Of a stretch of 64,000 nt of DNA, positions 2 to 44,519 are shown in pieces. Both the position numbers and the translations under genes were made by a program. Positions within the stretch are counted from its first letter, which is position 1. The number at the start of each line of letters is the position of its first letter. Below the pieces are notes generated by a model. That model was not told the DNA's origin. It did not search any database and worked only from the letters and a program-made list of their open reading frames with translations. Source of the stretch: an uncultured Clostridia bacterium (GTDB lineage: Bacteria; Bacillota; DTU025; MWDF01); the NCBI GenBank assembly GCA_964545975.1, contig CAZJHY010000002.1, positions 18,867 through 82,866 of the forward strand, given 5' to 3'.

Positions 2-574
2 ACCAAGGTTGAGGACCAACCCGATTTCGCAAGCGACCCTCTCGGCCTGGAGGCAAGGAACCTGAACCGCGTGTATCCCGGCAAGGAGGACGGCACGCTC
101 ACTGAGAAGATTGCATATGGAATAATGAGACTTCTGGAAGTGGAGGGCATTGAGGCGGGCATCGACTTTCATGAGGCGAATCCGGGCAGCACCCTCGCCT
201 GGACGATAATCTCGCCAAATGAGACGCTTGATGCTGCTGTCCTTGCCGCTTTTGACCTTGAGGACAGGGGCATAAGGATGAATCCTGACAGAAGCGGGCC
301 GGGCTTTGCAGGATATAGCCACTGGGAATGGAGCAGGCTCGGCACGTCAGCCTACCTTCTGGAGACTGTAAACCCGGGAATGGAGACAGGGAAGAAGGCA
401 GATCCGATCGTCAGCGAGGAGTTCCCGATAAAAAAGCGGGTGGGAATACATCTTGAGACTATGCTGGCGCTGCTGAGATACCAGTCAGAGCTTTCCGGAG
501 TCAGGTTCGAGGCTTCAGGCATACCGGGCTATTCGGACCTGATGAAGCTCGGATTGGCGGGACTGCTCAGATAA
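2..574 (+). CDS. AstE/AspA (succinylglutamate desuccinylase/aspartoacylase, M14-like) family deacylase, C-terminal part; 5' end outside window
   Basis: The frame is open from base 2. The translation reads ..ARNLNRVYPG (family DLNRxFPG-type motif), then IDFHEA. Stop at 572-574. Confidence 0.6.
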   Translation, partial: TKVEDQPDFASDPLGLEARNLNRVYPGKEDGTLTEKIAYGIMRLLEVEGIEAGIDFHEANPGSTLAWTIISPNETLDAAVLAAFDLEDRGIRMNPDRSGPGFAGYSHWEWSRLGTSAYLLETVNPGMETGKKADPIVSEEFPIKKRVGIHLETMLALLRYQSELSGVRFEASGIPGYSDLMKLGLAGLLR

Positions 575-1815: not shown

Positions 1816-1885
1816 ATAGGTGCCCTCCCTTGGAAAAACTGGATTGTATTTTCATTATCGCACAGGTTATGATTCGTTGTAAGAT

Positions 1886-1990
1886 AACCGCGCTCCGAGC
1901 CGGACGACCTAAAGCGAGAAGCTATGGGCTTCCGGCCGACAGGGCCAGGGGGGAAACGCCCTGACCTCCCTTTTGGAAAGGATTGCGGCA
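1886..1990 (+). promoter_or_regulatory. Candidate molybdenum/tungsten cofactor (Moco/Tuco RNA motif) riboswitch aptamer
   Basis: CUCCGAGCC is at 1893-1901 and CCUCCC-N4-GGAAAGG is at 1965-1981. Closing helix: CCGC 1888-1891 with GCGG 1985-1988. Inner helices: GCCGG 1899-1903 with CCGGC 1932-1936, and CAGGG 1946-1950 with CCCUG 1959-1963. These were matched from memory to the published consensus and not searched. Confidence 0.6.
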
Positions 1991-2003
1991 GGCTTGAGTT
2001 TTC

Positions 2004-2045
2004 ATGCCGTGCCCTTCCTTCATGAGGATGGGCACGGCATTTTTT
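2004..2045 (+). terminator. Intrinsic terminator/attenuator (putative riboswitch expression platform)
   Basis: ATGCCGTGCCC (2004-2014) pairs with GGGCACGGCAT (2030-2040), followed by T5 (2041-2045). It ends only 11 nt before the ATG at 2057. Confidence 0.7.
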
Positions 2046-2056
2046 CGGAGGTACTG

Positions 2057-3007
2057 ATGAGAAGGATACTTGGCATTGTTTTGGCGCTGGCAGCAATCAC
2101 GGCCCTTTCGGCAGGGGCCCTTGCAAGCCAGGAGGCCCTCAGCATCAAACTGACCGACAGGCTGGGAACGTCGCAGACAGTTGTACTTGCCTCACTGCCA
2201 CAGCTCACCCACCTGGCCTCTTATAAGAGGTCCTCAGGAACGATAGTCGGCCCTTTCACTTATACCGGTCCGTCTCTTAATTCGATACTCGCCCTTATGG
2301 GAGGGATAAACAAGGGCGACGCGGTGCAGCTTATCGCAGGTGACGGCTACAGGATGAGCCTTACCTACGAGCAGGTCAATGGAGAGGTGACTGTCTACAA
2401 CGAGAAAGGCGAGGCGCTGGATGAGTTCTCAAGGCCGATTATGGTGATTGCCACATCCTCCGACAACCCTGCGTTCGACGGCATAAGGGCAATCTACTCG
2501 GGTCCTGCCAGCCCGCTAACCGATGGGCACACGTGGGTCAAGGACATCGTGGAAGTCAGGGTCATACCGATGGTCAAAGAGTGGATGCTCGAGCTTAAAG
2601 GAGCAATATCCACGAAGATGGACAGGTCCACTTTCGAAAGCCTGGCCACCTGCCCGGCATCTCCCCACCCGGGCGAGCAGCACGCGTCGATGTCCGGATC
2701 CTATGCGGGCACCCCGCTTTGGACGCTAGTCTCGGTGGTGGACAACATCGAACCCGAGAACTCTCACTATACCTTCGACAGGCAGCTTGCGGCGAAGGGC
2801 TATATGGTAAGGGTGATATCCGCGGACGGCTCCTTCCTGGACATCAGGTCCCAGGACATGGCCGACGACGGCGGCTATATTGTCGCATTCACAAAGGACG
2901 GGCACATACTGGGCGACGATGAGGGACCCCTTGTGCTTACAGGCCCCAAGGTCTCAAAGACGATTTTCAAGATAGTCTCGATCGAGCTTATCGGTCTGGG
3001 CAATTAG
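2057..3007 (+). CDS. Exported two-domain protein with molybdopterin-oxidoreductase-like (PF00174-like) fold
   Basis: The start was moved to the ATG at 2057 (GGAGG at 2047-2051). Signal peptide is MRRILGIVLALAAITALSAGALA. The pattern G-P-F-x-G-x-L-x-x-L...DGY...L...V occurs twice. The second half begins WMLELKG, which is typical of that fold. Confidence 0.55.
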   Translation: MRRILGIVLALAAITALSAGALASQEALSIKLTDRLGTSQTVVLASLPQLTHLASYKRSSGTIVGPFTYTGPSLNSILALMGGINKGDAVQLIAGDGYRMSLTYEQVNGEVTVYNEKGEALDEFSRPIMVIATSSDNPAFDGIRAIYSGPASPLTDGHTWVKDIVEVRVIPMVKEWMLELKGAISTKMDRSTFESLATCPASPHPGEQHASMSGSYAGTPLWTLVSVVDNIEPENSHYTFDRQLAAKGYMVRVISADGSFLDIRSQDMADDGGYIVAFTKDGHILGDDEGPLVLTGPKVSKTIFKIVSIELIGLGN

Positions 3008-3019
3008 GAGGAGAAGGCA

Positions 3020-3535
3020 ATGATAAGGAAGGTATTGGCGGCGGCATTACTGGCAGCATTTGCACTTAGCGTATCGGTCATGGCGGCAGGCCCCATGCTC
3101 AAGGTATCCAAGGGCGATGCAGCTGCGGTGACTGTGGACATCTCGACCCTGGAGCAGGTGTCAGGCAAGGCATACTACAAGAACTCCAAGGGAGTGCTCT
3201 CAGGCCCGTTCAGCATCAAGGGAGTGAGGCTCTCTGACGTGCTGAAGGCGGCAGGCGGCATCTTAGAGGCCGAGAAGCTTGTAGTCACATCGTCCGACGG
3301 CTATGTCACTGAGCTCACTTTCGCGCAGGTGATGGGCAAGATGGATATAACAAGGGCGGACGGAAGCGCGGAGACCGAGAAGGTCGAAGTGATACCCGTA
3401 ATCATCACATGGTCGGAGCCTGCTATGGAGAAGGACCTACCCAGGCTATCCTTCATAACGAAGGACGGCCACATCACCGAGAGCAAGTACTGGGCGAGAA
3501 ACGTAGTTGAGTTCAAAGTGGTCGCAGTAAAATAG
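3020..3535 (+). CDS. Exported single-domain paralog of the preceding gene (molybdopterin-oxidoreductase-like fold, no cysteine)
   Basis: Signal peptide is MIRKVLAAALLAAFALSVSVMAA. The block GPFSIKGVRLSDVLKAAGG...SSDGYVTELTFAQV...KYWARNVVEFKVV parallels the upstream gene. GGAGG RBS is present. Confidence 0.55.
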   Translation: MIRKVLAAALLAAFALSVSVMAAGPMLKVSKGDAAAVTVDISTLEQVSGKAYYKNSKGVLSGPFSIKGVRLSDVLKAAGGILEAEKLVVTSSDGYVTELTFAQVMGKMDITRADGSAETEKVEVIPVIITWSEPAMEKDLPRLSFITKDGHITESKYWARNVVEFKVVAVK

Positions 3536-3554: not shown

Positions 3555-3583
3555 AAGCGCCCTCTGCAATGGGGGCGCTTTCT
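3555..3583 (+). terminator. Probable terminator after the exported-protein pair
   Basis: AAGCGCCC (3555-3562) pairs with GGGCGCTT (3573-3580), followed by a weak T tract. Confidence 0.45.
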
Positions 3584-3681
3584 CACATCTATAGCCCTAA
3601 AAAGGTTATAATTTATTTATCAGGAAACGTATCCTAAAAGGCAGGCACAAAGCCCTGCCGCCACTTCAGGGAGGTGCCCGG

Positions 3682-5397
3682 ATGGCAGAATCCCTAAAAA
3701 TCTCGATAATCCAGATGGGAGCCTACGACATGATGAGCCCCCATCATTCGGACAACGAGATGTTCTACATGATCGAGATGGAGAAGGACTTCAACCCCGA
3801 CATAATACTGTTGCCCGAGTGCGCCTGGCCTGGCTACTTCCTTTCGGGCTGGGATTATGCGATGCAGGAGAAGTCCGACGATGTGATGGGCCGCCTGGCG
3901 GCAGCGGCAAGGAGGCTGGGTTGCTTCATAGTCGCAGGCCTTCCCGAGCCTGACAAGAGCGAGCCTACGGCGCAGGCCCTCCCGTTCAACGAGCAGTGGA
4001 TGCAACCGGAGGCATGCCCTCTCTACAATTCTGCGATCGCCTGGAATAAGCAGGGGAAGGTCGTGGCAAGGGGCAGGAAGGTGAACCTCTGGCACTTCGA
4101 CGGCAGGTGGTTTAGGAGAGGAGAGGAGCCGGCATCGTTCAGGACCAGATGGGGCAAGGTGGGCCTTATAGTCTGCGCGGACGCCAGGCTTCCGCAGCTT
4201 GTGGAGACCCTGGCGGAAGACGGTTGCCGCCTCGTGCTCAACTGCACGAACTGGGTCACAAGCGGGCCTGACAGGGCGAAACTGACGAATCCGCAGGCAG
4301 ACTACCTGATAAGGGTGAGGGCGGCCGAGAACAACGTCTGGATAGCCTCAGCAAACAAGGCCGGCTTGGAAGACGGGCTCATTGCCTTCTGCGGAGGCTC
4401 GCAGCTGGCATCCCCCGAGGGGGTGACCGTCAGAAGGGCTTCCTCCGACAAAGTGGAGGTCCTGAGGGTGGAGATTCCCCTGGATTCACAGGGAAGGATT
4501 GAGCTTCCGGAACCCCGGGTAGAAAGGATAAGAAACGTAGCCGAGTACGACGCATCAGTGACGGGGCTGTCATCTTCAGGCGCTGAGGGGCCAAAGGCTG
4601 AGGGGCAGGGCAGCATCGCAAGTGCGCCGGTTGCCTCGCATCATCCTTTCGCGGCAGTAGTGCAGCAATCCCCGGATTCGGCAGGGCAACCCGGGACAGG
4701 CCTTGTAGCCAAGGCGCAGGTTAAAAGGCTTGCTGCAAAGATAGAGTCACTGGAGGCGGACATCGTGGTCTTCTCCGGTACCTTCGCCGCGATGGCGGGG
4801 CCGGACCCGCAGGCCGCGGGGCTTAAGCATGAGGCCTCGACAAGGGGTAGGATCCTGGTGATTCCTCATGGGAAATGCGCGAAATGCGGAAACCCGATAG
4901 GAGGGGCGGACGTCGTATTCGACGGAGCGTCAATCGAGCAGTACGGAGCGCTGGCAAGGCGCGAGTCCACGAGAGGATGCCCGAGGTGCGGATACGGCGA
5001 TTCGGTAGCCCTCGCCCCGGTGGTGGAGACGCCATTCGGCCCGCTCGGCCTGCTTCTTGGCCGGGAGGGGCACGAACATAGGCTCGTCGCGAACCTTGCC
5101 GGCATGGGGGTGGGGATGTTCGCATGGATTACCTCCGGGCTCGTATACGAGCATGAGATAGTCACGAGGGCCAGGGCAATGGAATCAAGGGTATGGATGG
5201 CGACAGCCAACCCATCAAGGTTCAAGGCGAAGGGCGAGGAGATAGGATTCAGGTCTGGGCTTAGCCTTATCGCAGAGCCTGACGGAAGGGTCGCATCATG
5301 CGCCTTTCCGGACGAGGAACAGATCATATCCTCCTACATGGACCTTTGCCTTACGTTAAGGCGGGAAGTTGTGCCCGGCACCAAGGCGACGAGATAG
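3682..5397 (+). CDS. Two-domain carbon-nitrogen hydrolase (nitrilase superfamily): an active N-domain plus a degenerate C-domain carrying a 4-Cys insert
   Basis: The N-domain has LPECAWPGY (Glu), GRKVNLWHF (Lys) and GLIVCADARLP (Cys). The C-domain lacks the Glu and Cys equivalents and carries CAKC (4876-4887) and CPRC (4978-4989). Confidence 0.75.
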   Translation: MAESLKISIIQMGAYDMMSPHHSDNEMFYMIEMEKDFNPDIILLPECAWPGYFLSGWDYAMQEKSDDVMGRLAAAARRLGCFIVAGLPEPDKSEPTAQALPFNEQWMQPEACPLYNSAIAWNKQGKVVARGRKVNLWHFDGRWFRRGEEPASFRTRWGKVGLIVCADARLPQLVETLAEDGCRLVLNCTNWVTSGPDRAKLTNPQADYLIRVRAAENNVWIASANKAGLEDGLIAFCGGSQLASPEGVTVRRASSDKVEVLRVEIPLDSQGRIELPEPRVERIRNVAEYDASVTGLSSSGAEGPKAEGQGSIASAPVASHHPFAAVVQQSPDSAGQPGTGLVAKAQVKRLAAKIESLEADIVVFSGTFAAMAGPDPQAAGLKHEASTRGRILVIPHGKCAKCGNPIGGADVVFDGASIEQYGALARRESTRGCPRCGYGDSVALAPVVETPFGPLGLLLGREGHEHRLVANLAGMGVGMFAWITSGLVYEHEIVTRARAMESRVWMATANPSRFKAKGEEIGFRSGLSLIAEPDGRVASCAFPDEEQIISSYMDLCLTLRREVVPGTKATR

Positions 5398-5413
5398 ACT
5401 GGAGGAATAAGGT

Positions 5414-6331
5414 TTGCGCAAGGCCTTTCTTGCAGCACTTTTGATAATGGCATTGCTTGCAGCGTCAGGGGGCGCGGCCTCCTATAAGCCGAGGCTGGTA
5501 GTCCTAAACGGCGTGACGGGCCTAGGGCTCGTTGCACTTCTGGACGATGAGGGCTATGAGGTGGAGATTGGCAAGTCCGCCGATGTGGCAGTAGCAAGGC
5601 TCAACACGATGGGTGCGGACGCCGCAGCTCTTCCCGTGTCCACAGCAGCGCTTCTGAGAAACAAGGGCACGGCCATCAGGCTCGCCGCCATCACAAACTA
5701 CGGCTCCCTTTACATCGTCTCGTCGAAGGCTGATTCCGACCTCATATCTGCGGCGACGTCATTTCTTGGCGTGCCGGGCAAGGGCACGATGCCGGATGTG
5801 GTCCTGGACATACTGCTTTCCTCGAAGAAAGCAGGGGGCTCTGGCATCCAGTACTACTCATCTCCAGCGGAGCTTGCAAACCTTCTGGCGGCTGGTAGGA
5901 TCGAATCCGCCCTCCTCCCGGAGCCTTGGGTGAGCCAGGCTCTTTTCGCAAACAAGGACCTCCGCATAGCATACGACCTGCAGGCCGGATGGAGATCCGC
6001 TTATAGCTCGGACTATCCGCTAAGCTGCGTTGTTGCGACCGAAAGCTTCATAAGGAATCACCCGGCGGAGTTCGCTAAGCTTCTTTCGGATATCGAAGAG
6101 AGCGTAAGATGGGTAGCGGAGAACCCTTCAAAGGCAGCGGGAATAGCCGTAGAAAGGCTCGGGATGTCGGGGCCTTCTACGGAGGCTGCGATACCAAGAT
6201 GCAACTTCAGGTTTTTGGACGGAGCCGACGCCAGGCTTTCGGCCTTGTCCTTCTATGAGAGGGCCCTTCAGTCATCTGCTGCCCTGATAGGAGGCAAGCT
6301 TCCGGATGAAGCTTTCTATGCGGGCCGCTAA
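5414..6331 (+). CDS. ABC transporter substrate-binding protein, NitT/TauT (SsuA/NMT1-like) family
   Basis: TTG start with GGAGG upstream and a signal peptide. Overall similarity is to sulfonate/nitrate-type binding proteins. It is followed by a matching permease and ATPase. Confidence 0.6.
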   Translation: MRKAFLAALLIMALLAASGGAASYKPRLVVLNGVTGLGLVALLDDEGYEVEIGKSADVAVARLNTMGADAAALPVSTAALLRNKGTAIRLAAITNYGSLYIVSSKADSDLISAATSFLGVPGKGTMPDVVLDILLSSKKAGGSGIQYYSSPAELANLLAAGRIESALLPEPWVSQALFANKDLRIAYDLQAGWRSAYSSDYPLSCVVATESFIRNHPAEFAKLLSDIEESVRWVAENPSKAAGIAVERLGMSGPSTEAAIPRCNFRFLDGADARLSALSFYERALQSSAALIGGKLPDEAFYAGR

Positions 6332-7070
6332 GGTCGGGCCAATGGCCGGAACCGCCATAGTGCTCATTATTTGGTGGGCAGGCTCCGCCATTATCGAAAA
6401 CCCGCTGCTTCTGCCTTCCCCGCTGGAGACTGTCAGGGCGTTGGCAGTAGTTCTTGCAGGAAGGTCATTTGCTTCGGATATCTCTGCCACTGCCCTCAGG
6501 GTGGCTTATGCCTTCATCCTCTCCTTCTTGCTTGGAACGGCAGTCGGCGCTGCCTCCGGCAGGAACGTAATGCTAAGATCGATGCTGTCGCCAGCTATGG
6601 CGGCGCTGCGCACTGTTCCTTTCATCTCGCTGTCAGTGCTCTCCCTGGTATGGTTCAAGTCGGGGGCAGTTCCCGTCTTCGTGGCATTTCTGATGGCATT
6701 CCCGTTGGTAGCCTCGATCATTTCGGAGGCCGCGGCGTCCGTCGATGAGAAGCTAATAGAGCTGTCAAGGGTCTACATGGTGCCGAAGCCGAGGATGGTG
6801 AGGCTTCTCTATGCCCCGTCTCTGGCACCATATCTCGTATCGGCTGCTGCTCAGGCAATGGGGGTTAGCTGGAAAATCGTGGTTTCGGCTGAGGTTCTGT
6901 CACTTCCCAGGACGGGAATGGGGGCGAGAATGGATACTGCGAGAGCCTTTCTGGATACTCCCGGGCTATTTGCATGGACGCTTCTTCTGGTGCTCATTGG
7001 CTACGGGAGCGACCTGCTTCTGGGGCATCTCATGAGGTTATCCTTCAGAAGGAAGGAGGGGGCGTTGTGA
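6306..7070 (+). CDS. ABC transporter permease (SsuC/TauC-like)
   Basis: About six hydrophobic segments and an EAA-like loop (ELSRVYMVPKPRMVRLLYAPSLAPYL). The start is uncertain (6306, 6318 or 6342). Confidence 0.75.
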   Translation: MKLSMRAAKVGPMAGTAIVLIIWWAGSAIIENPLLLPSPLETVRALAVVLAGRSFASDISATALRVAYAFILSFLLGTAVGAASGRNVMLRSMLSPAMAALRTVPFISLSVLSLVWFKSGAVPVFVAFLMAFPLVASIISEAAASVDEKLIELSRVYMVPKPRMVRLLYAPSLAPYLVSAAAQAMGVSWKIVVSAEVLSLPRTGMGARMDTARAFLDTPGLFAWTLLLVLIGYGSDLLLGHLMRLSFRRKEGAL

Positions 7071-7819
7071 GCTCCATAACGATAAGCGGCCTATCCAAAT
7101 CCTTCGAGGGCACGCCGGTATTCAAAGGGCTGTCGATGTCGGCTGAGGCAGGCCGCGTGACCGCAATCCTCGGACCCTCCGGAAGGGGGAAAACCACCCT
7201 TCTTCGCATCCTCTGCGGGCTGGAGCGCCAGGACGGGGGAAGCGCCCAATTGCCTGAGGAATCCGGCATAGCTGTAGCATTCCAGGAGCCCAGGCTTCTT
7301 CCATGGCTTACAGTACAGGAGAACATGTCCTATTGCCTGGGCGAGGAATCCACGGCGAGGGCTTTGATGGTGCTAAAAGAGCTTGGACTTGAAGGATTCG
7401 CCCGAAGGAAGCCGTCAGCTATGTCCGGAGGAGAGCAACAAAGAGTGAACCTGGCGCGGGCTTTGGCCTCTGAGGCGAAGGTGCTTCTGCTTGACGAGCC
7501 ATTCAGCTCCATAGGTCTGGGAATGAAGGCCGAGATGCTTCCGAAGCTGAGAGAAAGGCTCGCTTCCGAGGGCAGGACGGTTGTCATGGTCACGCACAGC
7601 CCAGTGGATGTGGCCCTTATGGCCGATGCCTTCTACCTCATGGACGAGGAAGGCTCGGGGGCAAGGGGCCCATACAGTGTCCTTCTCCCCGAAAGAGGAA
7701 GAGAGCTAGGCGACGAGGCGACCGGCAGGGAAGTGCACAGGCTGATGCTGATGATGGCATCGCTCGGGGCTCTCCCGAGTGAATCGGAAGGGTTGAGGGA
7801 GGGCATAAATGGGCGCTGA
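7067..7819 (+). CDS. ABC transporter ATP-binding protein (SsuB/TauB-like)
   Basis: The GTG at 7067 overlaps the permease stop (GTGA). Walker A is GPSGRGKTT, the signature is MSGGEQQRVNLARAL, and Walker B is LLLDEP. Confidence 0.85.
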   Translation: MSSITISGLSKSFEGTPVFKGLSMSAEAGRVTAILGPSGRGKTTLLRILCGLERQDGGSAQLPEESGIAVAFQEPRLLPWLTVQENMSYCLGEESTARALMVLKELGLEGFARRKPSAMSGGEQQRVNLARALASEAKVLLLDEPFSSIGLGMKAEMLPKLRERLASEGRTVVMVTHSPVDVALMADAFYLMDEEGSGARGPYSVLLPERGRELGDEATGREVHRLMLMMASLGALPSESEGLREGINGR

Positions 7820-8528
7820 GGGCAGGTTCCAAAGGGAGATACTGCTCATAGGGCAGGAAGGGTATGAGAGGCTTAGGGATAGCCATGTTGCCGTCTTCGG
7901 CATCGGAGGCGTGGGCTCGTTCTGCGCCGAGGCGCTGGCAAGAGCCGGAGTTGGAGAGATAACACTAGTTGATTCCGACACCGTGCAGGAGAGTAACTCA
8001 AACAGACAGCTTGTGGCCCTTGGAAGTACCCTCGGCAGGGCTAAGGTGGACGTTATGGCCGAACGGATTCACGACATCAACCCCGATGCGACTACCCACC
8101 CGATTAAGGCCTGGTTCGGAGCAGAAAACGCCGATGAGATGCTATCAGAAGGGTTCGACTACGTAGCGGACGCGATAGACAGCGTGGAATCCAAGCTCAT
8201 GCTCATTGCCTCCTGCGTCAGAAAGGGCATTCCCGTGGCATCCAGCATGGGGGCCGGAAATAAGACCGACGCGACAGGTTATAGAATCGCCGACATCTCG
8301 AAGACCAAGGCATGTCCGCTGGCCAGGGTGATAAGGACCAGACTGAGGAAGGTGGGCATAACCGGCGGGGTCACTGCCATCTATTCCGACGATGAACCCT
8401 TATTAAGAAGGCCTGGGCCCCCAGGAAGCATCTCCTTCGTGCCACCAGTCGCGGGGCTTCTGCTCGCCCAGGCGGTAATAAACGCGCTTCTTGCCAGAAA
8501 TGAGGGGTATCTCCCCTTCATCGGATGA
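7809..8528 (+). CDS. tcdA: tRNA threonylcarbamoyladenosine dehydratase (ThiF/E1-like)
   Basis: GIGGVGSFCAEALARAGVGEITLVDSDTVQESNSNRQ and the overall length are typical of TcdA/CsdL. Confidence 0.8.
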   Translation: MGAEGRFQREILLIGQEGYERLRDSHVAVFGIGGVGSFCAEALARAGVGEITLVDSDTVQESNSNRQLVALGSTLGRAKVDVMAERIHDINPDATTHPIKAWFGAENADEMLSEGFDYVADAIDSVESKLMLIASCVRKGIPVASSMGAGNKTDATGYRIADISKTKACPLARVIRTRLRKVGITGGVTAIYSDDEPLLRRPGPPGSISFVPPVAGLLLAQAVINALLARNEGYLPFIG

Positions 8529-9302: not shown

Positions 9303-10514
9303 CTATTTAAGCGTCCACTCCGCTTTCTGCGTCGTGCCGGTCACAGGGTCGATTACCTTGTCCTCCATCCAATATACCAGAAGACCGTCGGAGGCTCTGA
9401 AAGCCCAAGCCCTCTTGTAGTTCTTTCCGAACTCGAAGATCACCACCCGTCCGGTGCCATCCTTGCTCTCCCCTATGTAGCTGACCTCGATTATGCTGTT
9501 GGTTATGGGGTCCCTGTCAAGGACCTGACCCACCTTGAACTTCGACACTATGCTCTGAGGCATCCAGAAGCTCCCGCCTATCTGGGAAGTTCCGATGATT
9601 ATCTTGGAATCGTATTTCTCCTCAGCGCTGAACACCCGAGTAAGGCTTGCGGTTATGAGCTTCTTGTCTGCCTTCTCCACCCTGAAAGTCACGAGGGCGG
9701 GAACGGAAAGCCCCGGGCCCGTCTTAGGATGCCAGGTCTGTATGTTGCCGTCGTAAGCGAGCGTGAAGCCCGGTTTCACGAAGGCGGGCTGGCTGCTCGC
9801 GCTCCATGGAAGTCCCATGTAGCGCATCGAATAGAACTCGACGGCATTGACCTCTATTGCTGAACCCGGCTTGGCCCTGGATATCCTTGCGCTGTATAGC
9901 AGAAGCCCTGACGATTTCTCCACAATCCATGCGTAATGGGTCTCGGGTCCCTCAACGGGAGTGTATGACAGCTTGACGGCATCGTATGTCTGGTTAAGGA
10001 TCTTCCACTGGATCTCCTCTGTCTTCAGTCCCTTTGCCGTGGTTGCCTTAAGCAGTTCGGTATTGAGCCAGAAAGGTCCCATGCCCGTGGCGGAAATGCT
10101 GCTGTCGTCCTCCCAGGGAAGGAAAGACATATCAACGAATACGGTGCTGAATGTGGTGGCCAGCTTTCCGTCTATTCCTGTGACATCCGTCCTCACAAGC
10201 AGGGGATTGACCGATAGGTCCTCGGGCTTTTGAAGCGGAGCCTCCGACAGCTTTGCTACTGACTGCGACTGAGACCTGCCGATTTCTCCTCCTGCTGTCC
10301 TGTAATAAACGCGAAGGCCTTCCTTCAGCCATGCAGGGGCGGGCATGCCGGCAGCCTCAGGAAGCAGCGATATCAGAATTTCGTCCCCTCCAGTAGCATC
10401 CTTCGTCGGAACGGCCGCATATGCATTGCTCCAGGCCGTCGGCAGGATGCAGGCGGTGGAGAGGATAAGCAGAACAGCAGTCATCACCAGTGATCTCCTT
10501 GCCGGGGTCCTCAT
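9303..10514 (-). CDS. Secreted hypothetical protein
   Basis: ATG at 10514 lies 8 nt after GGGAGGAA. It has a signal peptide (..LSTACILPTAWSNAYA). I recognise no family motif. Confidence 0.6.
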   Translation of the reverse strand: MRTPARRSLVMTAVLLILSTACILPTAWSNAYAAVPTKDATGGDEILISLLPEAAGMPAPAWLKEGLRVYYRTAGGEIGRSQSQSVAKLSEAPLQKPEDLSVNPLLVRTDVTGIDGKLATTFSTVFVDMSFLPWEDDSSISATGMGPFWLNTELLKATTAKGLKTEEIQWKILNQTYDAVKLSYTPVEGPETHYAWIVEKSSGLLLYSARISRAKPGSAIEVNAVEFYSMRYMGLPWSASSQPAFVKPGFTLAYDGNIQTWHPKTGPGLSVPALVTFRVEKADKKLITASLTRVFSAEEKYDSKIIIGTSQIGGSFWMPQSIVSKFKVGQVLDRDPITNSIIEVSYIGESKDGTGRVVIFEFGKNYKRAWAFRASDGLLVYWMEDKVIDPVTGTTQKAEWTLK

Positions 10515-10667
10515 CGCCAATTCCTCCCAGTCATCAGAAGTGCAGGATTAGAAGCCTCCCGCACAGAACTTAGCTATAATCATGGTATCACAGTCCCTCA
10601 ATAATAAATTACGTACGAAAGCGCAAAAACCTTCCATGTCTGACGCAAAAAGACGGAGGCGAGCCCC

Positions 10668-12548
10668 ATGGGAAGATGCTCAATCAGGGCGATGGCGATA
10701 ATAATGTGCCTGATGGCTGCCATAATGAACGGGTGTGTCAAGGAGGAATCCTGCAAGGTAGAGATTTTCGGCACCGTGCGTGACTCATCATCAGAAGCCG
10801 GCATAGCGGGGGCCAGGATATCTGCGGACGGCGGCATATCCGCTCAAAGCGGTCAGGGCGGAGCCTTTGAGACCCAGCAGGTTACGCTTAAGCCCGGGAA
10901 GATAACCGTAAGGTTCACTGCAGACGGCTTTGCCCCCATCAGCAAAGAAATCGCGGTTTCCAGAAGCGCTCGGATGTGCGTGAATGCGGACATGTATCCG
11001 GCATCAGCTGGAAGGCCGCTCGTAGAGTTCAAGTTCACACTGTCCAATGATTATGAGCCTCAAGCGACCGTAATGGCTTCTTCTGCCGTAAGAAGCCTTC
11101 CCATGCAGGCGGAGGGGAGCGAAGAAGCAGCATCGGTTGTCGTATATCCCTCACGTGGGGCGAAGTTCGCTGAGATAAGGGAGACTTCGGAGCGTTTGGG
11201 AAGCATTGTGATAGAATCAGTCCCCGAAATGGGCTACATGCTATTAAGCCTGCCTGAGGGCTCAGACGCAGCGGAGTTCTCCGAAAGGCTCAAAGGCCTC
11301 TCATGGGTGGACGATGCCGAACCGGATTACGTGTGCTACACTCTCGGCGGCTATGTCCCGGATGACATGTACTGGCCGCAGCAGTGGGCTTTAAGGGCTT
11401 CGAGCATGCACAGGATGTGGAGGTATGCGATTCCCTCCGCCCCTGTGGTGGTTGCGGTGGTCGATACCGGCGTCGATGTGAGCCACCCGGACCTTAGCTC
11501 CAGATGCCTTCCAATGCTTAACTCCATAAATACGAACATGTTGGACAATGCGGGGCACGGAACGCACGTGACGGGAATCATAGCCGCCGAGATGGACAAT
11601 TCGGTCGGAATAGCCGGAGTGGCCAGCAATGCCGTGATTCTGCCTATTAAGAGCATGGAGAAGAGAGGGAGCACATCCTCGGGGACTATGTCCACTATCT
11701 CCAGGGGGATCCGCCTTGCCGCAGACAACGGGGCGGATATCATCAGCATGAGCATCGGATGGCCGCTGTTCTTCTCTGATTGTTCCTTCAGGCTTCTGAA
11801 GGAGGCATTGGACTATGCAGATTCCAAGGGGTGCGTGCTTGTGGCCGCGGCAGGCAACAACGGGTCCGACACGGACCTAACCATGCCCGGGAAATATGAG
11901 AAATGTTACTCTGTAGGTGCCATCACGCCGGCAATGTTTGTTGCCAATTACTCTAACACTGGGCCTGGACTGGACATATTCGCCCCCGGAGGGGGCACTG
12001 GCGCCTATGGCGTGCTCAGCACCGTGCCGTTTGCAGTAGAATCCACGGGCTATGTCAGGATGAGCGGCACCTCGATGGCCACCCCCCACATATCCGGGAT
12101 GCTGGCCGTACTTATGTCGCTCGGAATGGATGCTGAAGAGGCTAAGGACGCGCTTGACGCATCCTCGGAGTACTTGGAAGGCGAGGATGTGGGAGTGGCC
12201 AATTGTTATGCTGCGGCCGCCGGAGCCAGGGGAAGCCGCGCGATGTTCTGGCTTTGCGATGAGGATGGAGACCCATTAAGCTATGCATTCATGGGTTCCG
12301 ACGCCTCCAGGGACATGGTTGTCTTCGGCGATACGCAGGGAAGCGCGTTCCTCTGCGGATGGGTGAAGCTTTCTGCAGCAGACTACCCAAGCCAGGGGGA
12401 CTTCTTCGGAAAGCAGGAGGTGTTCCTGGATGAGATTCCGCTGACGCTTCCCTCTATCCTTAAGCTGAGGTTCGTAGACCTTGAGGATGAGGAAACGACG
12501 CGCAGCCTGTCTGTACCGGAAATCTGGGGGGAGTCGGGCAATGAATAG
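10668..12548 (+). CDS. S8 subtilisin-like serine protease, probable lipoprotein, with N-terminal carboxypeptidase-regulatory-like domain
   Basis: Catalytic blocks are VAVVDTGVDVSHPDL (Asp), HGTHVTGIIAA (His) and SGTSMATPHISG (Ser). An N-terminal Cys follows the hydrophobic segment. Confidence 0.85.
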   Translation: MGRCSIRAMAIIMCLMAAIMNGCVKEESCKVEIFGTVRDSSSEAGIAGARISADGGISAQSGQGGAFETQQVTLKPGKITVRFTADGFAPISKEIAVSRSARMCVNADMYPASAGRPLVEFKFTLSNDYEPQATVMASSAVRSLPMQAEGSEEAASVVVYPSRGAKFAEIRETSERLGSIVIESVPEMGYMLLSLPEGSDAAEFSERLKGLSWVDDAEPDYVCYTLGGYVPDDMYWPQQWALRASSMHRMWRYAIPSAPVVVAVVDTGVDVSHPDLSSRCLPMLNSINTNMLDNAGHGTHVTGIIAAEMDNSVGIAGVASNAVILPIKSMEKRGSTSSGTMSTISRGIRLAADNGADIISMSIGWPLFFSDCSFRLLKEALDYADSKGCVLVAAAGNNGSDTDLTMPGKYEKCYSVGAITPAMFVANYSNTGPGLDIFAPGGGTGAYGVLSTVPFAVESTGYVRMSGTSMATPHISGMLAVLMSLGMDAEEAKDALDASSEYLEGEDVGVANCYAAAAGARGSRAMFWLCDEDGDPLSYAFMGSDASRDMVVFGDTQGSAFLCGWVKLSAADYPSQGDFFGKQEVFLDEIPLTLPSILKLRFVDLEDEETTRSLSVPEIWGESGNE

Positions 12549-12599
12549 AACAATCGGGAGCTTGATACCGTCACAAAGCCATGAAGGCGGTGACACTCG

Positions 12600-14477
12600 A
12601 TGATCAAGAGGCTATTGGCGCTGCTGGCCGCATCTGCCCTTGTGCTTATGGCTGGCTGCAGTGAGACGGTGACCTTCAGCTTGGAAGTCGGAGGCACGGT
12701 CAGGGATCAATCGACCAGCTTCGCGATTTTCGGCGTGGCAGTCAGAGCTGAAGTGCAAGGTAAGCCGGGGCAGGTGACCACGAGCACCAACTCAAGCGGA
12801 GGGTATTCGTTCACTTTGACCGGGCTCAAGGCCGGGTCGGTGATAACGGTCAACTTCAGCCATGCCGACTACTACCAGGAGACCAGGACATTCACCAGGA
12901 GTACTGGCGGAAGCCACCTCCTGAATGTGTATATGGTTCAGGAATCGTCGGTAAACACTATATCGGGGTATGCAACCCTGATGAACCTTACCCCGCCGGC
13001 GGCATCGAAGACGCCTCTTGCTTCAAGCACGATAACGGTAAAGCCCGGCTATGATACTGAACCCACGGAAATCATTGTCGCCCCAAGAAAGGGCGCCAGT
13101 TTCCCTGCTATAGAGGGCTTCGCCCTGAAAAGGGGCTCAGCTGTGATAAGAAGCAACCCACGACTTGGCGTGATCATACTGAGAGTGCCCGAGGGAAGGT
13201 TCGCAGACGAGTTCGCGGCCGAAGTAGGCGGCGAGCCCTGGGTGGATTATGCGGAGCCGAACGGCAAGCTTTGGGCTAGCGGCTACTCCATACCAGACGA
13301 CGATTACTTCCAAGGCTACCAGTGGAACCTATTCGCGACCACGATGCCATTCGTATGGGATGGAGGCTTCTTCTCCCCGCCAGTCACGGTTGCCGTAATA
13401 GACACCAGGGTGGACGTGGCCCATCCAGACCTGTCCGGTCATGTAGACGACCTGGTGGATATCGTGAATAGCTCGTATGACTCGACTCAAAAGAAGTATC
13501 CCCATGGCACGCATGTAGCGGGAATAATTGGCGCGGTGACGGACAATAATAGCTATATGGCCGGCATGAACATCGGCGGCATAACGATACTGCCGATAAG
13601 GGGCTTAAGGGATGACGGAGGCGGGGATTATGATCAAATCGCGTCAGCAATCCAGCACGCAAGGCTGAACGGGGCGGATGTGATCAACCTGAGCCTAGGA
13701 GGCGGCGGGTTCAGCCAAGCAGTTTTCAACGAGGTGAATAGCGCGATAGCATCCGGGATAGCCGTTGTGGCTGCGGCTGGAAATGATGGCAGCTCCGAAT
13801 TGGATTTCCCGGCAAACATCCCCGGGGTCATCGCGGTCTCCGCCGTTGGCGATTTCTTCCAGCGGGCGGCTTACTCGAACTATGGAGAGGATTTGGACTT
13901 CGCGGCGCCAGGGGGCACTTCGTCTCTTGGAGTGAGGAGCCTTTATCCTAGCGACAGGGGCTATGTTGGATCCATGGCCGGCACTTCCCAGGCGGCGCCT
14001 CATGTGGCGGCATTGTTCGCAATGCTCATGCAGCAGGGGCACTCGCTGTCCTCCGCCGAGGACATCTTGAGGAAGACGTCACAGCTCAGCGACATATCAT
14101 TGCCTTATTACGGCTCGGGAATAATAAACGCACATGCAGCCTTGAAGGGGCTTACCATGGATAAAGCGGTATTCGCGCTTTTCGACAAGTATACCTTGAT
14201 GCAAGTCCCGGGGTGCTCCGGCTATGGCAACGCTGAGGACAGAAGCTTCGACTTCCCCAGCCAGCAGGGGGAATACTACCTGTTAGGGTGGCTTGATACC
14301 GACGCAAACGGCGACTACTCAGATGAGGATTATTACGGCATCGAAGAAGTCAGCATAGGCGGGTTCGGCCTCTCAAGAGGAAGCGATGTGCTTGAGATGT
14401 ACCTCTACAAGGAGGTAGCGGCAGGATCAGCCAAACAGGGAGGAATGGTCCTGCAGGAGCCTGTGCCTTTCCTCTAG
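12600..14477 (+). CDS. S8 subtilisin-like serine protease, lipoprotein; paralog of the upstream gene
   Basis: Lipobox LMAGC. Catalytic blocks are VAVIDTRVDVAHPDL, HGTHVAGIIGA and AGTSQAAPHVAALFA. The domain order matches the 10668 gene. Confidence 0.85.
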   Translation: MIKRLLALLAASALVLMAGCSETVTFSLEVGGTVRDQSTSFAIFGVAVRAEVQGKPGQVTTSTNSSGGYSFTLTGLKAGSVITVNFSHADYYQETRTFTRSTGGSHLLNVYMVQESSVNTISGYATLMNLTPPAASKTPLASSTITVKPGYDTEPTEIIVAPRKGASFPAIEGFALKRGSAVIRSNPRLGVIILRVPEGRFADEFAAEVGGEPWVDYAEPNGKLWASGYSIPDDDYFQGYQWNLFATTMPFVWDGGFFSPPVTVAVIDTRVDVAHPDLSGHVDDLVDIVNSSYDSTQKKYPHGTHVAGIIGAVTDNNSYMAGMNIGGITILPIRGLRDDGGGDYDQIASAIQHARLNGADVINLSLGGGGFSQAVFNEVNSAIASGIAVVAAAGNDGSSELDFPANIPGVIAVSAVGDFFQRAAYSNYGEDLDFAAPGGTSSLGVRSLYPSDRGYVGSMAGTSQAAPHVAALFAMLMQQGHSLSSAEDILRKTSQLSDISLPYYGSGIINAHAALKGLTMDKAVFALFDKYTLMQVPGCSGYGNAEDRSFDFPSQQGEYYLLGWLDTDANGDYSDEDYYGIEEVSIGGFGLSRGSDVLEMYLYKEVAAGSAKQGGMVLQEPVPFL

Positions 14478-17400
14478 GATCGGGGTTGGATCGCTTCTAT
14501 GCCCCTATCCTTGAAGACCGCGATGCAGGCATCAACGACATCAGGATCCAGCGCCGTTCCACGTAGCGCAAGGACCTCCTCGAGCGCTTCAGGAAGGGAA
14601 CTTGCCGGCCTGTACGGCCTGTGGGAAGTCATAGCGTCCACTATATCGGAGACGGCGATTATCTTGGCCTCCAGGAGGATCTCATCGCCTTTGAGCCCCC
14701 TGGGATAACCGTTTCCGTCGATTCTCTCGTGATGCTGGAACACGATTTCCGCAAGAGGCCACGGCAGCTTAATGTTGGAAAGGATATCCCTTCCCGACTT
14801 GCAATGCATCTGCACAAGCTTGTATTCAAGCGGTGTAAGGGTCCTTGGCCTGTTGAGGATGTCTGCAGGTATGTGAAGCTTTCCTATGTCATGGACCAGG
14901 GCGGATTTCGATATCGCCTCAACCCTGCCGTTCGAAAGGCCCATCTGCCTTGCGATGCTTTCAGCGATTTCCGCAACCCCCCTCTGATGTCCTGCTGTAT
15001 AGGGGTCTTTGAACTCGGTTACGGAGGAGAGCACGTCAAGGCTCCTGTTCCAAGCGAGCTTAAGCTCCTCGTGAGTTCTCAGCCTTTCGATTTCGGCAAG
15101 CTTCTTCTCCGTGTTGTCAATGATGACTCCCTGGATGCCTTCGATACTGCCGTCAGTCGCCCGAACTATCTTCGTATGGTCCTCAACCCAGATGAAATCC
15201 CCGTTTGCCATTCGCAGCCGGTATTCCTGGACGTATTCGGACATGCCTTTCTGCATGTACTCATCCGCTTCCCTGGTAAGATTCGCCAGATCCTCCTCGT
15301 GGACAAGTTCGGTGAACATTAGCTTGCGGCCCAGCAGGTCGTCAGGGCTGTACCCCCAGCGCGACACATTGGATGAAACATATTCTATAGACCAGTCAAC
15401 CTGATTTGACCATTTGATGAGCACTGCAGGGCTCTCCTTGATCACTTCGTTCGCCAAGCCGAGCATCTGCTGGCTTTGCGCCAGCTCGGACATGTCGTGG
15501 TAGATCGCATAGACATACCTCGAACCATCAGGGAGAGTCAACGGGATGCAGATCACACGGACCGGGATAATGCTTCCGTCCGCCCTCTGCCTCCTTGCCG
15601 TAAAATCGAGCTTGCTGCCCTCGATCGATTTGACGATATTTGATTCTATATCCTGTGCCGTCAGCTCAGTGCCTATCAGCCCTGAGAGAGTCTTCCCAAT
15701 TATTGAGCTCCTTGAGAATCCGAAAAGCTTCCTGAAGGCGATGTTTGCGCGGGTGATCCTTATGTCGCTGTCTATTACGACGACAGCGTCCGGGTTATTC
15801 TCGAACAGGCTGTCCAGATAAGCCCTCTCCCGTTCCAGCTTATCCTCCATCTGCCTGCGTTCCGAGATGTCATTGACGGTGAAGGAGAGCACCATCTTGT
15901 CCGCAAGGAAGAGTGTGCTTGCGAAAAGTTCGACATCCTTAACTAAGCCGCCTGATGCAAGCTGTCTTGTAAGCATTGAGCCGAACCCGGAATCCTTTGC
16001 TGATCCGGCCATGGCTTCGATGCTTCCGGATGATTCCGGCGGGGAGAAGCTGATAATGGTTCTGCCCTGCAAATCCTGCTCCGACAGACCATAGAACGAC
16101 TGCGATGCCTTGTTGGCCATCAGTACGGAGTACCTGTCGGCCTCGACGATAAGCATGGGGAGGTAGTTGTCCATGAACAGGGTCCTGAAGCGCTCTTCAG
16201 ACAGCGACATGCTTATGGCGGCCTCTTTCTGTTCTGTTATGTCCTGGCCCAGACAGATATAGCCCATGGTCTCGCCTTTGTCGATCACAGCTTTGGCAAT
16301 CCACCTCTGCCAGCGCTTCCTTTCATTCCTTATCAGCTCCAGCTCCTCAGAGTGGGTGGCATCCTTTCCATCAACTTCACTTCGCATCTTCCTGAAGAAC
16401 TGAACGTAATCCTCGCTGAAGACCTCATCCAGGGCTTTGCCGAGGTACTGCTCAGGGCTTCCGAGCTCGGCCATCTCCCTTAAAGAATCGTTGACATAGG
16501 TTATCCGGTAGCCAGAATCAAGGGAGAGGACGCACATAGGCATGCTCTCCACAAGGCTCCTGTACTTCAGCTCGCTTGCGGAGATCTCCCTTTGGAAGTT
16601 CCTTAGCGCAGTCTGGTCGGCAATCACCATGCCGAAAGTCTCTTCCGTCACGGGGAAGGCGGATATGTAAAGCCATCTTTGCGCTCCTGAAGAGAATCCG
16701 TCGATGACCACTGAACGCTTATCCAAGGCAGCCCGAAGTATCATGTCATACCAGCCTGCGTTAAGGAAGCTTGTGTTCTCCCGGAGCTTCCCGCCCAGCT
16801 GGAAGGGGCCTTTCTCGCCGGTGTTCCTCTCAAAAGCCGGATTCACGTCGATTAGCTCCATCTCCTTGTTTGAAGAACCGACTGGAAGCCTGTAGAGCAT
16901 GAACCCGGTTCCTGTGTGCAGGAAGAGGCTCCTGTACGTCCTTTCGCTCCTCTCCAGGTTCTGCTCTGCCTTGACCTCGCCCGAAACATCCCAGCCCACA
17001 AAGGTGAACCTGGTTGCCTGATTGTCGGGGTTTATGCTCGGATAGAGAGTGAAGCTCACATGTCTGCCCGCCAGCCTTTGCGTCTGCCTTGTTGACTCCC
17101 TCAGGGTCATCCTTGATTCAGAAACCATATCCTTCAGAAGATGCTCTGCCTCAGGCAGGATGTGGTAAATGGTCTGCCCGATGAGATCCATGCGGCTCTT
17201 TTTCAGCCATTTCTCCGATTCCTTGTTGGCAGCGATTATGAGCATGTCAGTATCAGTAATGAATGCGGGGTGGGCCAGAGCGGCAATCAGGGATGACCTG
17301 TCTGCAAGCAGAGGCATGATGCCCATCTCCAGATTGCCCCTTATGGCAGGCACTGTGAAACCTATGTAGAAGGACAGGTATGCAAACATATAGGAGAGTG

Positions 17401-18073: not shown

Positions 18074-18104
18074 GCAGCCTCCGTTGCCCCGATGGCTTCT
18101 GCCA

Positions 18105-20699: not shown

Positions 20700-20776
20700 G
20701 GAGGCGTGGTGTAGTGGTCAAACATGCCTGCCTGTCACGCAGGAGAACGCGGGTTCGACTCCCGTCGCTTCCGCCA
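20700..20776 (+). tRNA. tRNA-Asp: tRNA-Asp (anticodon GTC), CCA encoded
   Basis: Acceptor stem is GGAGGCG with CGCTTCC. Anticodon arm is CCTGC-CTGTCAC-GCAGG. T loop is TTCGACT. Discriminator G is followed by CCA. Confidence 0.93.
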
Positions 20777-20984: not shown

Positions 20985-21059
20985 GCGGATGTAGCCCAGT
21001 GGTAGGGCAATGGCTTCCCAAGCCATGTGTCGCGGGTTCGAATCCCGTCATCCGCTCCA
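20985..21059 (+). tRNA. tRNA-Gly: tRNA-Gly (anticodon CCC), CCA encoded
   Basis: Acceptor stem is GCGGATG with CATCCGC. Anticodon arm is ATGGC-TTCCCAA-GCCAT. T loop is TTCGAAT. Confidence 0.93.
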
Positions 21060-23743: not shown

Positions 23744-23818
23744 GCCGGTGTAGCTCAGTGGTAGAGCAGCGCATTCGTAATGCGCGGGTCGCGGGTTCAA
23801 CTCCCATCACCGGCTCCA
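23744..23818 (+). tRNA. tRNA-Thr: tRNA-Thr (anticodon CGT), CCA encoded
   Basis: Acceptor stem is GCCGGTG with CACCGGC. D arm is TAGCTCAGTGGTAGAGC. Anticodon arm is GCGCA-TTCGTAA-TGCGC. Confidence 0.93.
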
Positions 23819-42798: not shown

Positions 42799-42816
42799 AT
42801 CCAGCTACCTCCTAAC

Positions 42817-43188: not shown

Positions 43189-43226
43189 CTCTCCAACCTC
43201 CGTATGTTTATTTCAGTGCTTGTCCA

Positions 43227-44354: not shown

Positions 44355-44519
44355 CTCCGATATTGTGATGTGTACAAACTGTGCATGCGAATAAAGTGCG
44401 GTTCTTGCCGCTTACTATTATATAATACTCCTTGGGCTAATAGGACATAGCGGAGGGTGCGGCGAATAGCACAACTGAGAGCCTCTCCGCTTCGTTAATA
44501 TACTCGTGGAGGTATCGCG

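Follow-up and report, generated by a model that had tools for sequence, protein, structure and literature searches.

The P3-less members of the Moco RNA motif family (RF01055) have been associated with the tungsten cofactor (Tuco) through a published correlation, in work that did not itself demonstrate specificity (PMC2408646). Direct binding was beyond the reach of that founding study, the cofactor being unstable (PMC2408646). The same study, by Regulski et al. in 2008, listed a pair of P3-less RNAs in Syntrophomonas wolfei that precede genes annotated as 'putative sulphite oxidase', an exception left without explanation (PMC2408646). The prevailing view is that cells do not acquire the molybdenum cofactor (Moco) as a nutrient (PMC9026282); the sole described case of Moco uptake that we found in the literature is that of nematodes.

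Here we describe a P3-less RF01055 riboswitch in a 64-kb stretch of DNA from an uncultured Clostridia bacterium (hereafter the window), together with the two genes that follow it and their relatives in other genomes. An earlier note on this DNA had likened the leader to the Moco RNA motif, had drawn attention to a hairpin and U-run behind it, and had described the genes that follow as encoding exported, non-enzymatic-looking proteins whose place in such a regulon would be unusual.

Results

An RF01055 aptamer lies in the leader of ORF1

The leader between genes that precedes ORF1 is 241 nt long (1816-2056). A cmscan search of the window against all of Rfam 15 returned a single riboswitch match, to RF01055 in this leader, at 64.5 bits and E = 3.3e-13 over model positions 1-135. 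This is above the gathering score of 36 bits, and the Moco RNA motif call is thus borne out. Both blocks required by RF01055, CUCCGAGCC and CCUCCC...GGAAAGG, are present as CTCCGAGCC at 1893-1901 and CCTCCC-TTTT-GGAAAGG at 1965-1981, and the helix that had been proposed to enclose them can also be read from the sequence (CCGC at 1888-1891 with GCGG at 1985-1988). The 180-nt leader folds with -82.2 kcal/mol (z = -4.2), a value that none of 200 shuffled sequences equalled. The minimum free energy (MFE) fold recovered P1, P2, P4 and P5, and also the hairpin behind them (Table 1).

[quoted passage not shown] The stem is missing: its columns are deleted in the cmscan alignment of the window, and P2 and P4 are joined by CCGACAGGG without P3, which assigns the RNA to the P3-less 'Tuco' class. 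The leader is a genuine and ordinary P3-less member of the Moco/Tuco family, and as an RNA it brings nothing new to riboswitch biology. The identity of the ligand, Tuco as opposed to Moco, is suggested by this class assignment.

Upstream of the aptamer lies a candidate sigma-70-type promoter. The TTGTAT/TATGAT pair scored below the threshold of a consensus promoter scanner and was recovered instead by an alignment of six orthologous leaders, in which the hexamers fall in invariant or near-invariant columns and their flanks diverge. Transcription from this promoter would begin at ~1880, at the aptamer's 5' boundary.

Table 1. Positions of the features of the riboswitch and of the unit downstream (window coordinates unless residues are given; d1 and d2, domains 1 and 2)
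Feature	Position	Strand	Description
Candidate sigma-70-type promoter	1844-1873	+	-35-like TTGTAT (1844-1849), 18-nt spacer, -10-like TATGAT (1868-1873)
Moco/Tuco riboswitch aptamer (RF01055), P3-less	1881-1999	+	cmscan, MFE fold, covariation
P1	1888-1892/1984-1988 and 1894-1896/1980-1982	+	Aptamer helix
P2	1899-1936	+	Contains CCUAAAG...CUAUGG tetraloop-receptor-like motif
Receptor-like motif CCUAAAG...CUAUGG	1907-1913/1921-1926	+	Read from sequence; columns kept among relatives
P4	1942-1967	+	GAAA-capped
GNRA (GAAA) tetraloop	1953-1958	+	G-GAAA-C, on P4; conserved
P5	1969-1970/1975-1976	+	Aptamer helix
Predicted antiterminator	1977-2020	+	1977-1992 AAGGAUUGCGGCAGGC pairs with terminator 5' arm 2006-2020 GCCGUGCCCUUCCUU
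Intrinsic terminator	Hairpin 2004-2040, U-run 2040-2045	+	Folding
Shine-Dalgarno and start codon of ORF1	GGAGG 2047-2051; ATG 2057-2059	+	Read from sequence
ORF1	2057-3007	+	316 aa, signal peptide, two tandem domains of predicted SUOX/PruR fold
ORF1 d1	Residues ~27-172		TDGHTW motif
ORF1 d2	Residues ~173-316		Invariant Cys199 and His204
ORF2	3020-3535	+	171 aa, signal peptide, single putative d1-type SUOX/PruR-like domain
GC-rich hairpin and UUUCUC	3555-3580	+	20 nt past the ORF2 stop
TATAAT box	3607-3612	+	Ahead of the next gene (3682)

The aptamer is conserved together with its downstream gene

Homologues of ORF1 were collected from a large protein database (21 relatives) and by a genome scan with one genome per species, and contigs of relatives at 63-72% and at 33-40% identity were compared. 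The genome scan found homologues in 24 bacterial species, all of them uncultured or little-studied anaerobic Bacillota (including Syntrophaceticus, Fermentithermobacillaceae, DTU068, Peptococcaceae SCADC and Moorellaceae), and in ~35 archaeal species (Thermoplasmata, Thorarchaeota and Methanosarcinales/ANME-2). Of the 24 bacterial species, 22 have a P3-less RF01055 match that precedes the homologous gene on its own strand. The scores of these upstream matches were 53.6-84.6 bits, plus one 5'-truncated match of 37.3 bits. Scans of three archaeal loci gave no RF01055 match.

When 25 related aptamers were aligned, the P2-P4 junction always read CCGnnAGGG with no P3 insertion, and the longer RF01055 matches differed just by an extended P2 tip. 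The block cores UCCGA, CUCCC and GGAAAGG were invariant or nearly so across the 25 leaders. Covariation, proposed earlier as a check on orthologous leaders, was evaluated using RNAalifold and revealed compensatory changes at 19 of 33 pairs with seven sequences and at 16 of 24 pairs with 25 sequences; P1 covaries in the seven-sequence set and is misaligned by MAFFT in the larger one. The position, strand and structure of the aptamer are kept down to ~35% identity of the downstream protein.

A terminator and a predicted competing pairing suggest an OFF switch

The hairpin and U-run that had been described at 2004-2045 were confirmed; the outer stem has 11 bp, the inner stem has 5 bp, and U6 follows the hairpin. 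The U-run ends 11 nt ahead of the ATG, which is the transcription-terminating layout that had been recognised there. The 56-nt region containing the terminator (1995-2050) folds with -29.4 kcal/mol (z = -6.0), and the hairpin alone with -28.5 kcal/mol. A simple terminator scanner left the hairpin unflagged, as the interior loop and inner stem go beyond the loop size that the scanner allows; the miss is not evidence against the hairpin. A hairpin and U-run were present at the same place in six of six other leaders tested, two of them being weak (z ~ -2.0 to -2.5), and an automatic terminator finder reported a convincing hairpin and U-run in most of 25 leaders and none in seven.

Since the terminator lies wholly downstream of P1, the aptamer would act on it via a competing structure alone. 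A candidate for this structure is the predicted antiterminator, in which the segment 1977-1992, consisting of part of GGAAAGG and the 3' strand of P1, pairs with the 5' arm of the terminator. In folds of transcription intermediates ending at 2020-2026, the MFE structure swaps P1 for this pairing. Similar complementarity was found in most relatives, for example GGAAAGG:CCUUUCC in leader L006. In a shuffle test across 25 leaders, the duplex is modestly better than shuffled sequences, with z = -1.6 and 21 of 300 shuffles as good in the window, and z between -1.3 and -3.4 in the window's clade. Given this modest z and the failure of the finder on seven leaders, we infer the OFF logic from the architecture. 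When W/Mo-pterin cofactor is scarce, the 3' strand of the aptamer would pair with the terminator's 5' arm, letting RNA polymerase read through. When the cofactor is bound, P1 would be locked, the terminator would form and the transcript would stop before reaching ORF1. Such an OFF switch, in which cofactor binding leads to termination, would match the behaviour of the sole experimentally tested member of the family, that of E. coli moaA (PMC2408646).

ORF1 and ORF2 encode exported proteins of a predicted SUOX/PruR fold

Both controlled products carry signal peptides and are exported proteins, as had been claimed. The observation that their genes are not moa or mod genes also holds, and they are neither tup genes nor genes of known W/Mo enzymes. 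The product of ORF1 aligned with its homologues over its full length, and its two domains are homologous to each other (hhalign probability 94%). ORF2 and ORF1 d1 are paralogues (33% identity, E = 4e-18) with a common DGHxW-type motif. Near relatives keep ORF2 directly after ORF1; elsewhere, the kin of ORF2 are PF00174 proteins of ~170-197 aa encoded beside ECF S components or Mod/Wtp-type transporters.

The riboswitch-controlled unit is probably the ORF1-ORF2 bicistron, which would end at the GC-rich hairpin behind ORF2. The CN-hydrolase, NitT/TauT-type ABC and TcdA-like ThiF genes further downstream (3682-8528) were considered as members of the unit and rejected, as this hairpin and the TATAAT box intervene and the operons of more distant relatives lack these genes. 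Some read-through beyond the hairpin into these genes may occur. No other obvious Moco genes were seen across the window apart from ThiF-family genes. The rest of the window holds glycine-cleavage genes, subtilases, PAS-HD proteins and tRNAs.

With ORF1 or ORF2 as the query, Pfam, NCBIfam and the PDB yielded no significant sequence match (in Pfam, no family at E <= 0.01), so that family identity came solely from remote homologues and the predicted fold. PF00174 (Oxidored_molyb) is present in remote ORF1 homologues at 33-40% identity. The AlphaFold2 model of ORF1, built with 14 sequences (pLDDT 86.4, pTM 0.79), consists of two beta-rich domains. Its best Foldseek matches are to the periplasmic pterin binder PruR (7kp2, 7kom, 7kos and the neopterin-bound 7rkb; E 3e-5 to 3e-3, target TM 0.60-0.71), followed by SorA, SoxC and nitrate reductase, each through its Moco domain, all at a Foldseek probability of 1.00. 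As modelled, ORF1 is a protein of the SUOX/PruR molybdopterin/pterin-binding-type fold; ORF2 was putatively assigned this fold by its homology to d1.

The invariant Cys199 of d2 is located within a hairpin region before a Y-x-G-x-P-L motif. It was not placed at the SUOX Mo-ligand position by PDB profile searches, hhalign or comparison with an S-layer homologue, and in the hhalign alignment it lies ~10 residues off the position aligned with the PruR Trp and the SUOX Cys. The Cys is absent from d1, from ORF2 and from the S-component and phosphoesterase domains described below. Members of the family begin with Sec signal peptides or lipoboxes, and a twin-arginine motif is not conserved among them: ORF1 of the window starts MRRILG, and this RR is not kept, with many members having lipoboxes or KK/KR n-regions. 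Cofactor-loaded periplasmic molybdoenzymes leave via Tat, and the lack of a conserved twin-arginine motif argues against export as a cofactor-loaded enzyme. The description of the genes as 'non-enzymatic-looking' is probably right, in view of the lack of a redox partner gene in the annotated loci, the Sec/lipoprotein export and PruR as the best structural match. The view that the regulon is unusual holds just in part and was overstated, since the SUOX/PruR fold ties the genes to Moco biology.

Relatives link the family to an ECF transporter

Distant relatives have the riboswitch at the head of a longer operon, among whose products is an ORF1-like lipoprotein. The operon also encodes an anchored metallophosphoesterase (CpdA/SpdA-like or purple-acid-phosphatase-like) whose C-terminus is the same SUOX-like domain, and a PF09819 (YkoE-type) ECF S component extended at its C-terminus by a basic linker, an extra transmembrane helix and, last, a PF00174 domain (33.2 and 25.2 bits, cutoff 24). 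This PF00174 domain should face outward because the extra transmembrane helix precedes it. The S component is accompanied by a fused A-A' ATPase of the ECF type (TIGR04520 and TIGR04521 both exceed their cutoffs), mostly by a CbiQ T component, and often by MobB, a Bud32/APH-like kinase or a HAD hydrolase. A Thermoplasmata locus also holds genes for the ORF1-like protein, the phosphoesterase, the S component and the ATPase, and a Thorarchaeota locus holds these plus CbiQ. Within the window's clade, the ECF genes stand apart from the riboswitch operon, in a cluster of their own 4-9 kb upstream. This cluster encodes a NadE-like protein, the S component, a stand-alone 171-aa PF00174 protein, two ATPases, CbiQ, MobB (85 bits, cutoff 76.2), a kinase-like protein and BioY. 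By analogy with the clade, the cluster in this genome would fall just beyond the left end of the window.

The S-component fusion family comprises over 800 protein clusters and is encoded in no fewer than 236 species genomes, with carriers that include Syntrophomonas, Pelotomaculum, Dethiobacteria, Desulfosporosinus, Thermovorax subterraneus and Anoxynatronum. Its public names are generic or wrong ('thiamin/HMP permease', 'molybdopterin-dependent oxidoreductase'). RF01055 heads the S-component operon in two of three sampled contigs. Among 22 further S-component loci, an RF01055 match lies at most 6 kb upstream in 10, and at least one copy occurs within ~6 kb on either side in 14.

In loci of Peptococcaceae and Moorellaceae, the domains occur within S-layer-anchored proteins, and a 197-aa single-domain homologue is encoded directly upstream of SBP_bac_11 and permease genes. 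The Moorellaceae locus adds a TOBE-domain ATPase like those of Mod/Wtp-type oxyanion transporters, and an 84.6-bit RF01055 match stands at the head of the Peptococcaceae locus. One locus adjoins an aldehyde:ferredoxin oxidoreductase and a MoaD-like gene. No haem, Fe-S or cytochrome partner gene was found in the loci with annotated genes.

Discussion

A probable role on the supply side of the cofactor

We consider it likely that the P3-less Tuco-type OFF switch governs ORF1 and ORF2 as exported capture proteins that act on the supply side of the cofactor. Outside the cytoplasm, these proteins would capture a pterin-type cofactor or precursor, which we favour, or a W/Mo species, and pass it to importers; in near relatives the importer would be the YkoE-type ECF transporter. 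Capture and import are preferred over catalysis because the domains are secreted and PruR-sized, because they are fused to transporter and phosphoesterase modules, because no redox partner gene was found in the annotated loci, and because the predicted OFF switch has the logic expected for a supply function. The fold and the genes for the phosphoesterase and the kinase speak for a pterin-type cargo, the Mod/Wtp neighbours for a W/Mo cargo. Counting against this reading are Cys199 and His204 of d2, which could mark a catalytic Mo/W site, the lability of Moco, the separation of the ECF genes from the riboswitch operon in the window's clade, the lack of a significant Pfam match for ORF1 and ORF2 themselves, and the Mod/Wtp neighbours in two lineages, which fit metal capture equally well. 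The unnamed, uncharacterised system under the riboswitch plausibly serves to take up a W/Mo-pterin cofactor, one of its precursors or the metal itself.

We hold more tentatively, as a possibility that we would not yet favour, that the riboswitch marks a prokaryotic Mo/W-cofactor salvage route. Surface SUOX/PruR-fold domains would capture extracellular Moco/Tuco, MGD/MCD, MPT or cPMP, these domains being free (ORF1/ORF2), S-layer-anchored, or fused to the phosphoesterase or the S component. The phosphoesterase would trim the captured molecule, the YkoE-type ECF transporter would import it, and the kinase-like protein and MobB would reprocess it inside the cell. The Tuco-sensing OFF switch would feedback-repress the whole system, which on this scheme would be conserved from syntrophic Bacillota to Thermoplasmata and Thorarchaeota. 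In the literature we found no description of a bacterial Moco/MPT importer or of this ECF family.

Alternative functions of ORF1 and ORF2

The exported SUOX-fold proteins might instead bind tungsten or molybdenum at the cell surface, as an oxyanion or thio-anion, for delivery to Mod/Wtp-type or ECF importers, with the riboswitch part of the proposal unchanged. Mo/W transporters are classic members of the regulon (PMC2408646), and the 197-aa homologue upstream of the SBP_bac_11 and permease genes in Peptococcaceae and Moorellaceae, with the Peptococcaceae locus under RF01055, points in this direction, as do the invariant Cys and His of d2. The YkoE-type S component, the extracellular phosphoesterases and the kinase-like gene, however, resemble the salvage of an organic cofactor. 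We know of no SUOX- or PruR-fold protein that binds a free oxyanion, and the nearest solved structures are pterin binders (Foldseek; PMC11194511). On this balance we judge capture of the metal itself to be rather unlikely.

It is less probable still that ORF1, and perhaps ORF2, are extracytoplasmic Moco/Tuco oxidoreductases of the MsrP/YedY or sulfite-dehydrogenase kind, whose level is matched to that of the cofactor. The SUOX-fold matches to SorA, SoxC and nitrate reductase, the homologues with PF00174 and the invariance of Cys199 before Y-x-G-x-P-L would all be expected of such enzymes, and comparable genes were annotated as sulphite oxidases in the 2008 paper (PMC2408646). However, the domains, at ~145 aa, have the size of PruR and not of a full SUOX enzyme, the annotated loci contain no haem, Fe-S or cytochrome partner, and export is by Sec or as a lipoprotein with no conserved twin-arginine motif. 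The Cys, moreover, is confined to d2 and is placed by hhalign ~10 residues off the position aligned with the SUOX Cys, being missing from d1, ORF2 and the S-component and phosphoesterase domains, and an OFF switch is odd logic for a consumer of the cofactor.

Very little probability attaches to ORF1 and ORF2 being PruR-like sensors of an excreted non-Moco pterin that signal to a membrane partner. PruR provides the best structural matches, one of them solved with neopterin, and small secreted SUOX-fold proteins without a catalytic partner would suit this role, but there is no DcpA-type GGDEF/EAL or other signalling partner nearby, the Pro-Trp motif of PruR is missing (the aligned position is SSG), and the Moco-class riboswitch and the transporter-subunit fusions indicate transport. 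That the RF01055 match is a relic or a chance resemblance without a regulatory role has a negligible chance of being true, as it is contradicted by E = 3e-13 and by a position, strand and structure that are kept, with covariation, to ~35% protein identity.

Implications

The riboswitch serves as a signpost that ties a hypothetical secreted protein family to W/Mo-cofactor homeostasis and, via the relatives, ties a widespread ECF transporter with an extracytoplasmic Moco-binding-fold domain to the same homeostasis. A bacterial or archaeal importer, if real, would alter the view of cofactor economy in anaerobic consortia, and would account for the 'sulphite oxidase' exception of the 2008 paper. 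A second genome scan, made with a domain-1 profile, returned neither Syntrophomonas nor new lineages, and membership of the S. wolfei genes in this family would be tentative. The idea is testable in cultured carriers, namely Thermovorax subterraneus DSM 21563 and two Anoxynatronum species.

Comparison with known systems

The leader shares with the P3-lacking subclass of RF01055 the conserved blocks, P1, P2, P4 and P5, and the GAAA tetraloop with its receptor-like motif, and a terminator-type expression platform has also been described for some members of the family (PMC2408646). Its host likewise falls among the anaerobic Clostridia-type genomes in which P3-less variants dominate. The RNA differs in nothing essential; the difference lies in the downstream genes, which encode secreted PruR-sized SUOX-fold proteins.

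These proteins resemble PruR (7kou, 7kos, 7kom, 7kp2, 7rkb; PMC11194511) in being small (~140 aa) secreted domains with a degenerate SUOX fold and no accompanying catalytic domain. In contrast, PruR of Proteobacteria has a DcpA diguanylate cyclase/phosphodiesterase partner and a Pro-Trp motif, and the window proteins are without both. Sequence identity to PruR is just 13-17%, and the domains of the window's family are duplicated or fused to transporter or phosphoesterase modules, under a Moco-class riboswitch. With the SUOX molybdoenzymes (sulfite oxidase, SorA, SoxC and YedY/MsrP; PF00174), the family has in common the predicted fold and, in some of its members, matches to the Pfam model; the C-terminal motif aligns weakly with that of SorA. 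The proteins are much shorter than these enzymes, lack dimerisation and electron-transfer domains as well as a conserved Tat signal, and carry a candidate metal-ligand Cys, a putative counterpart of the SUOX Cys, in ORF1 d2 alone.

ECF systems of the YkoEDC type, with a PF09819 S component, are thiamine/HMP-related in Bacillus. The relatives of the window's locus have the same kind of assembly, made up of a PF09819 S component, a fused A-A' ATPase and mostly a CbiQ T component. They differ from YkoEDC in that control is by a Moco/Tuco riboswitch instead of a THI-box, in that the window does not encode the transporter, and in that the S component of the relatives bears an extra transmembrane helix and a SUOX-like domain predicted to be extracytoplasmic.

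ECF operon of near relatives and the gene block 3' of the riboswitch operon

In the near relatives L072 and L073, an ECF operon is located 4-9 kb upstream of the riboswitch. It encodes a NadE-like protein, a PF09819 S component and two ATPases, together with CbiQ, MobB, a kinase-like protein and BioY; its PF00174 protein, of 171 aa, is a separate gene product. No RF01055 match was detected in this region of L072 or L073 within the stretch of sequence covered. The counterpart of the region falls beyond the limits of the window.

Directly 3' of the riboswitch operon lies a block of five genes. Its synteny is kept across all near relatives, but the block is missing from distant relatives. It appears to be under a promoter of its own.

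Further RF01055 copies and other RNAs

At loci L166, L171, L163, L169, L176 and L178 from other genomes, a second RF01055 copy was observed just 3' of the ECF operon (~9.5-11.3 kb), and L178 carries a third copy as well. Several Moco/Tuco-riboswitch units are thus clustered at each of these loci. Locus L131 has an RF01055 match that scores 71 bits and runs in the opposite orientation to its ECF operon. This copy adjoins a gene for a 67-aa TOBE (molybdate-binding) protein, and no called gene was found downstream of it on the (-) strand. At locus L023, the Moco riboswitch is directly preceded by a TwoAYGGAY RNA (RF01731; 49.5 bits versus 43) that lies on the other strand.

Other genes of the window

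The window encodes a second ThiF-family E1 enzyme, which matched the full-length model at 208.7 bits and is followed by a class-V aminotransferase/cysteine-desulfurase-like gene. The two could form a sulfur-carrier activation pair. The three tRNA genes and the resolvase-like ORF may be the remnant of an integrated element, and the multi-PAS proteins are candidate signalling phosphodiesterases. The first of the two subtilases has a CarboxypepD_reg domain, and the subtilase pair is also found downstream in L073. Neither the 1383-aa nor the 405-aa ORF had a Pfam match at E <= 1e-5.

Positions of features in the window and at related loci
Feature	Sequence	Position	Strand
Five-gene block	window	3682-8528	+
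571-aa protein, CN_hydrolase matches in two stretches	window	within 3682-8528	+
NitT/TauT (SsuA/NMT1-like) ABC transporter: binding protein, permease, ATPase	window	within 3682-8528	+
TcdA/ThiF-like E1 enzyme	window	within 3682-8528	+
405-aa ORF	window	9303-10520	-
Two tandem paralogous subtilases (S8), ~625 aa	window	10668-14477	+
Neighbouring genes for two large multi-PAS proteins of 1227 and 604 aa that carry HD_5 (HD-GYP-type) domains	window	14474-19919	-
Three tRNA genes	window	20700-20773, 20985-21056, 23744-23815	+
159-aa ORF between tRNA genes, matching resolvase N-terminal domain	window	21251-21730	+
Glycine cleavage genes GcvT, GcvPA, GcvPB	window	within 39980-45893	-
Dihydrolipoamide-dehydrogenase-like gene, divergent from glycine cleavage genes	window	within 39980-45893	
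Second ThiF-family E1 enzyme and aminotransferase/desulfurase-like gene	window	57685-59728	+
1383-aa ORF	window	59802-63953	-
ECF operon	L072	259-6093	
ECF operon	L073	1-4650	
RF01055 copy	L131	13599-13718	-
TwoAYGGAY RNA	L023	4016-4173	-
Heliorhodopsin gene	L054	5826-6614	+

SUOX-like domains

Immediately upstream of the archaeal version of the module found in Thermoplasmata (locus L054) is a heliorhodopsin gene (323.9 bits).

The SUOX-like domains of ORF1 and ORF2, and those of the ORF1-like, S-component and phosphoesterase proteins of locus L025, were compared with NCBIfam NF041762 (GEGP diheme protein). Because every domain tested weakly matched the same stretch of the profile (positions ~158-207), the sequence comparison suggests that a related domain lies inside the GEGP diheme family.
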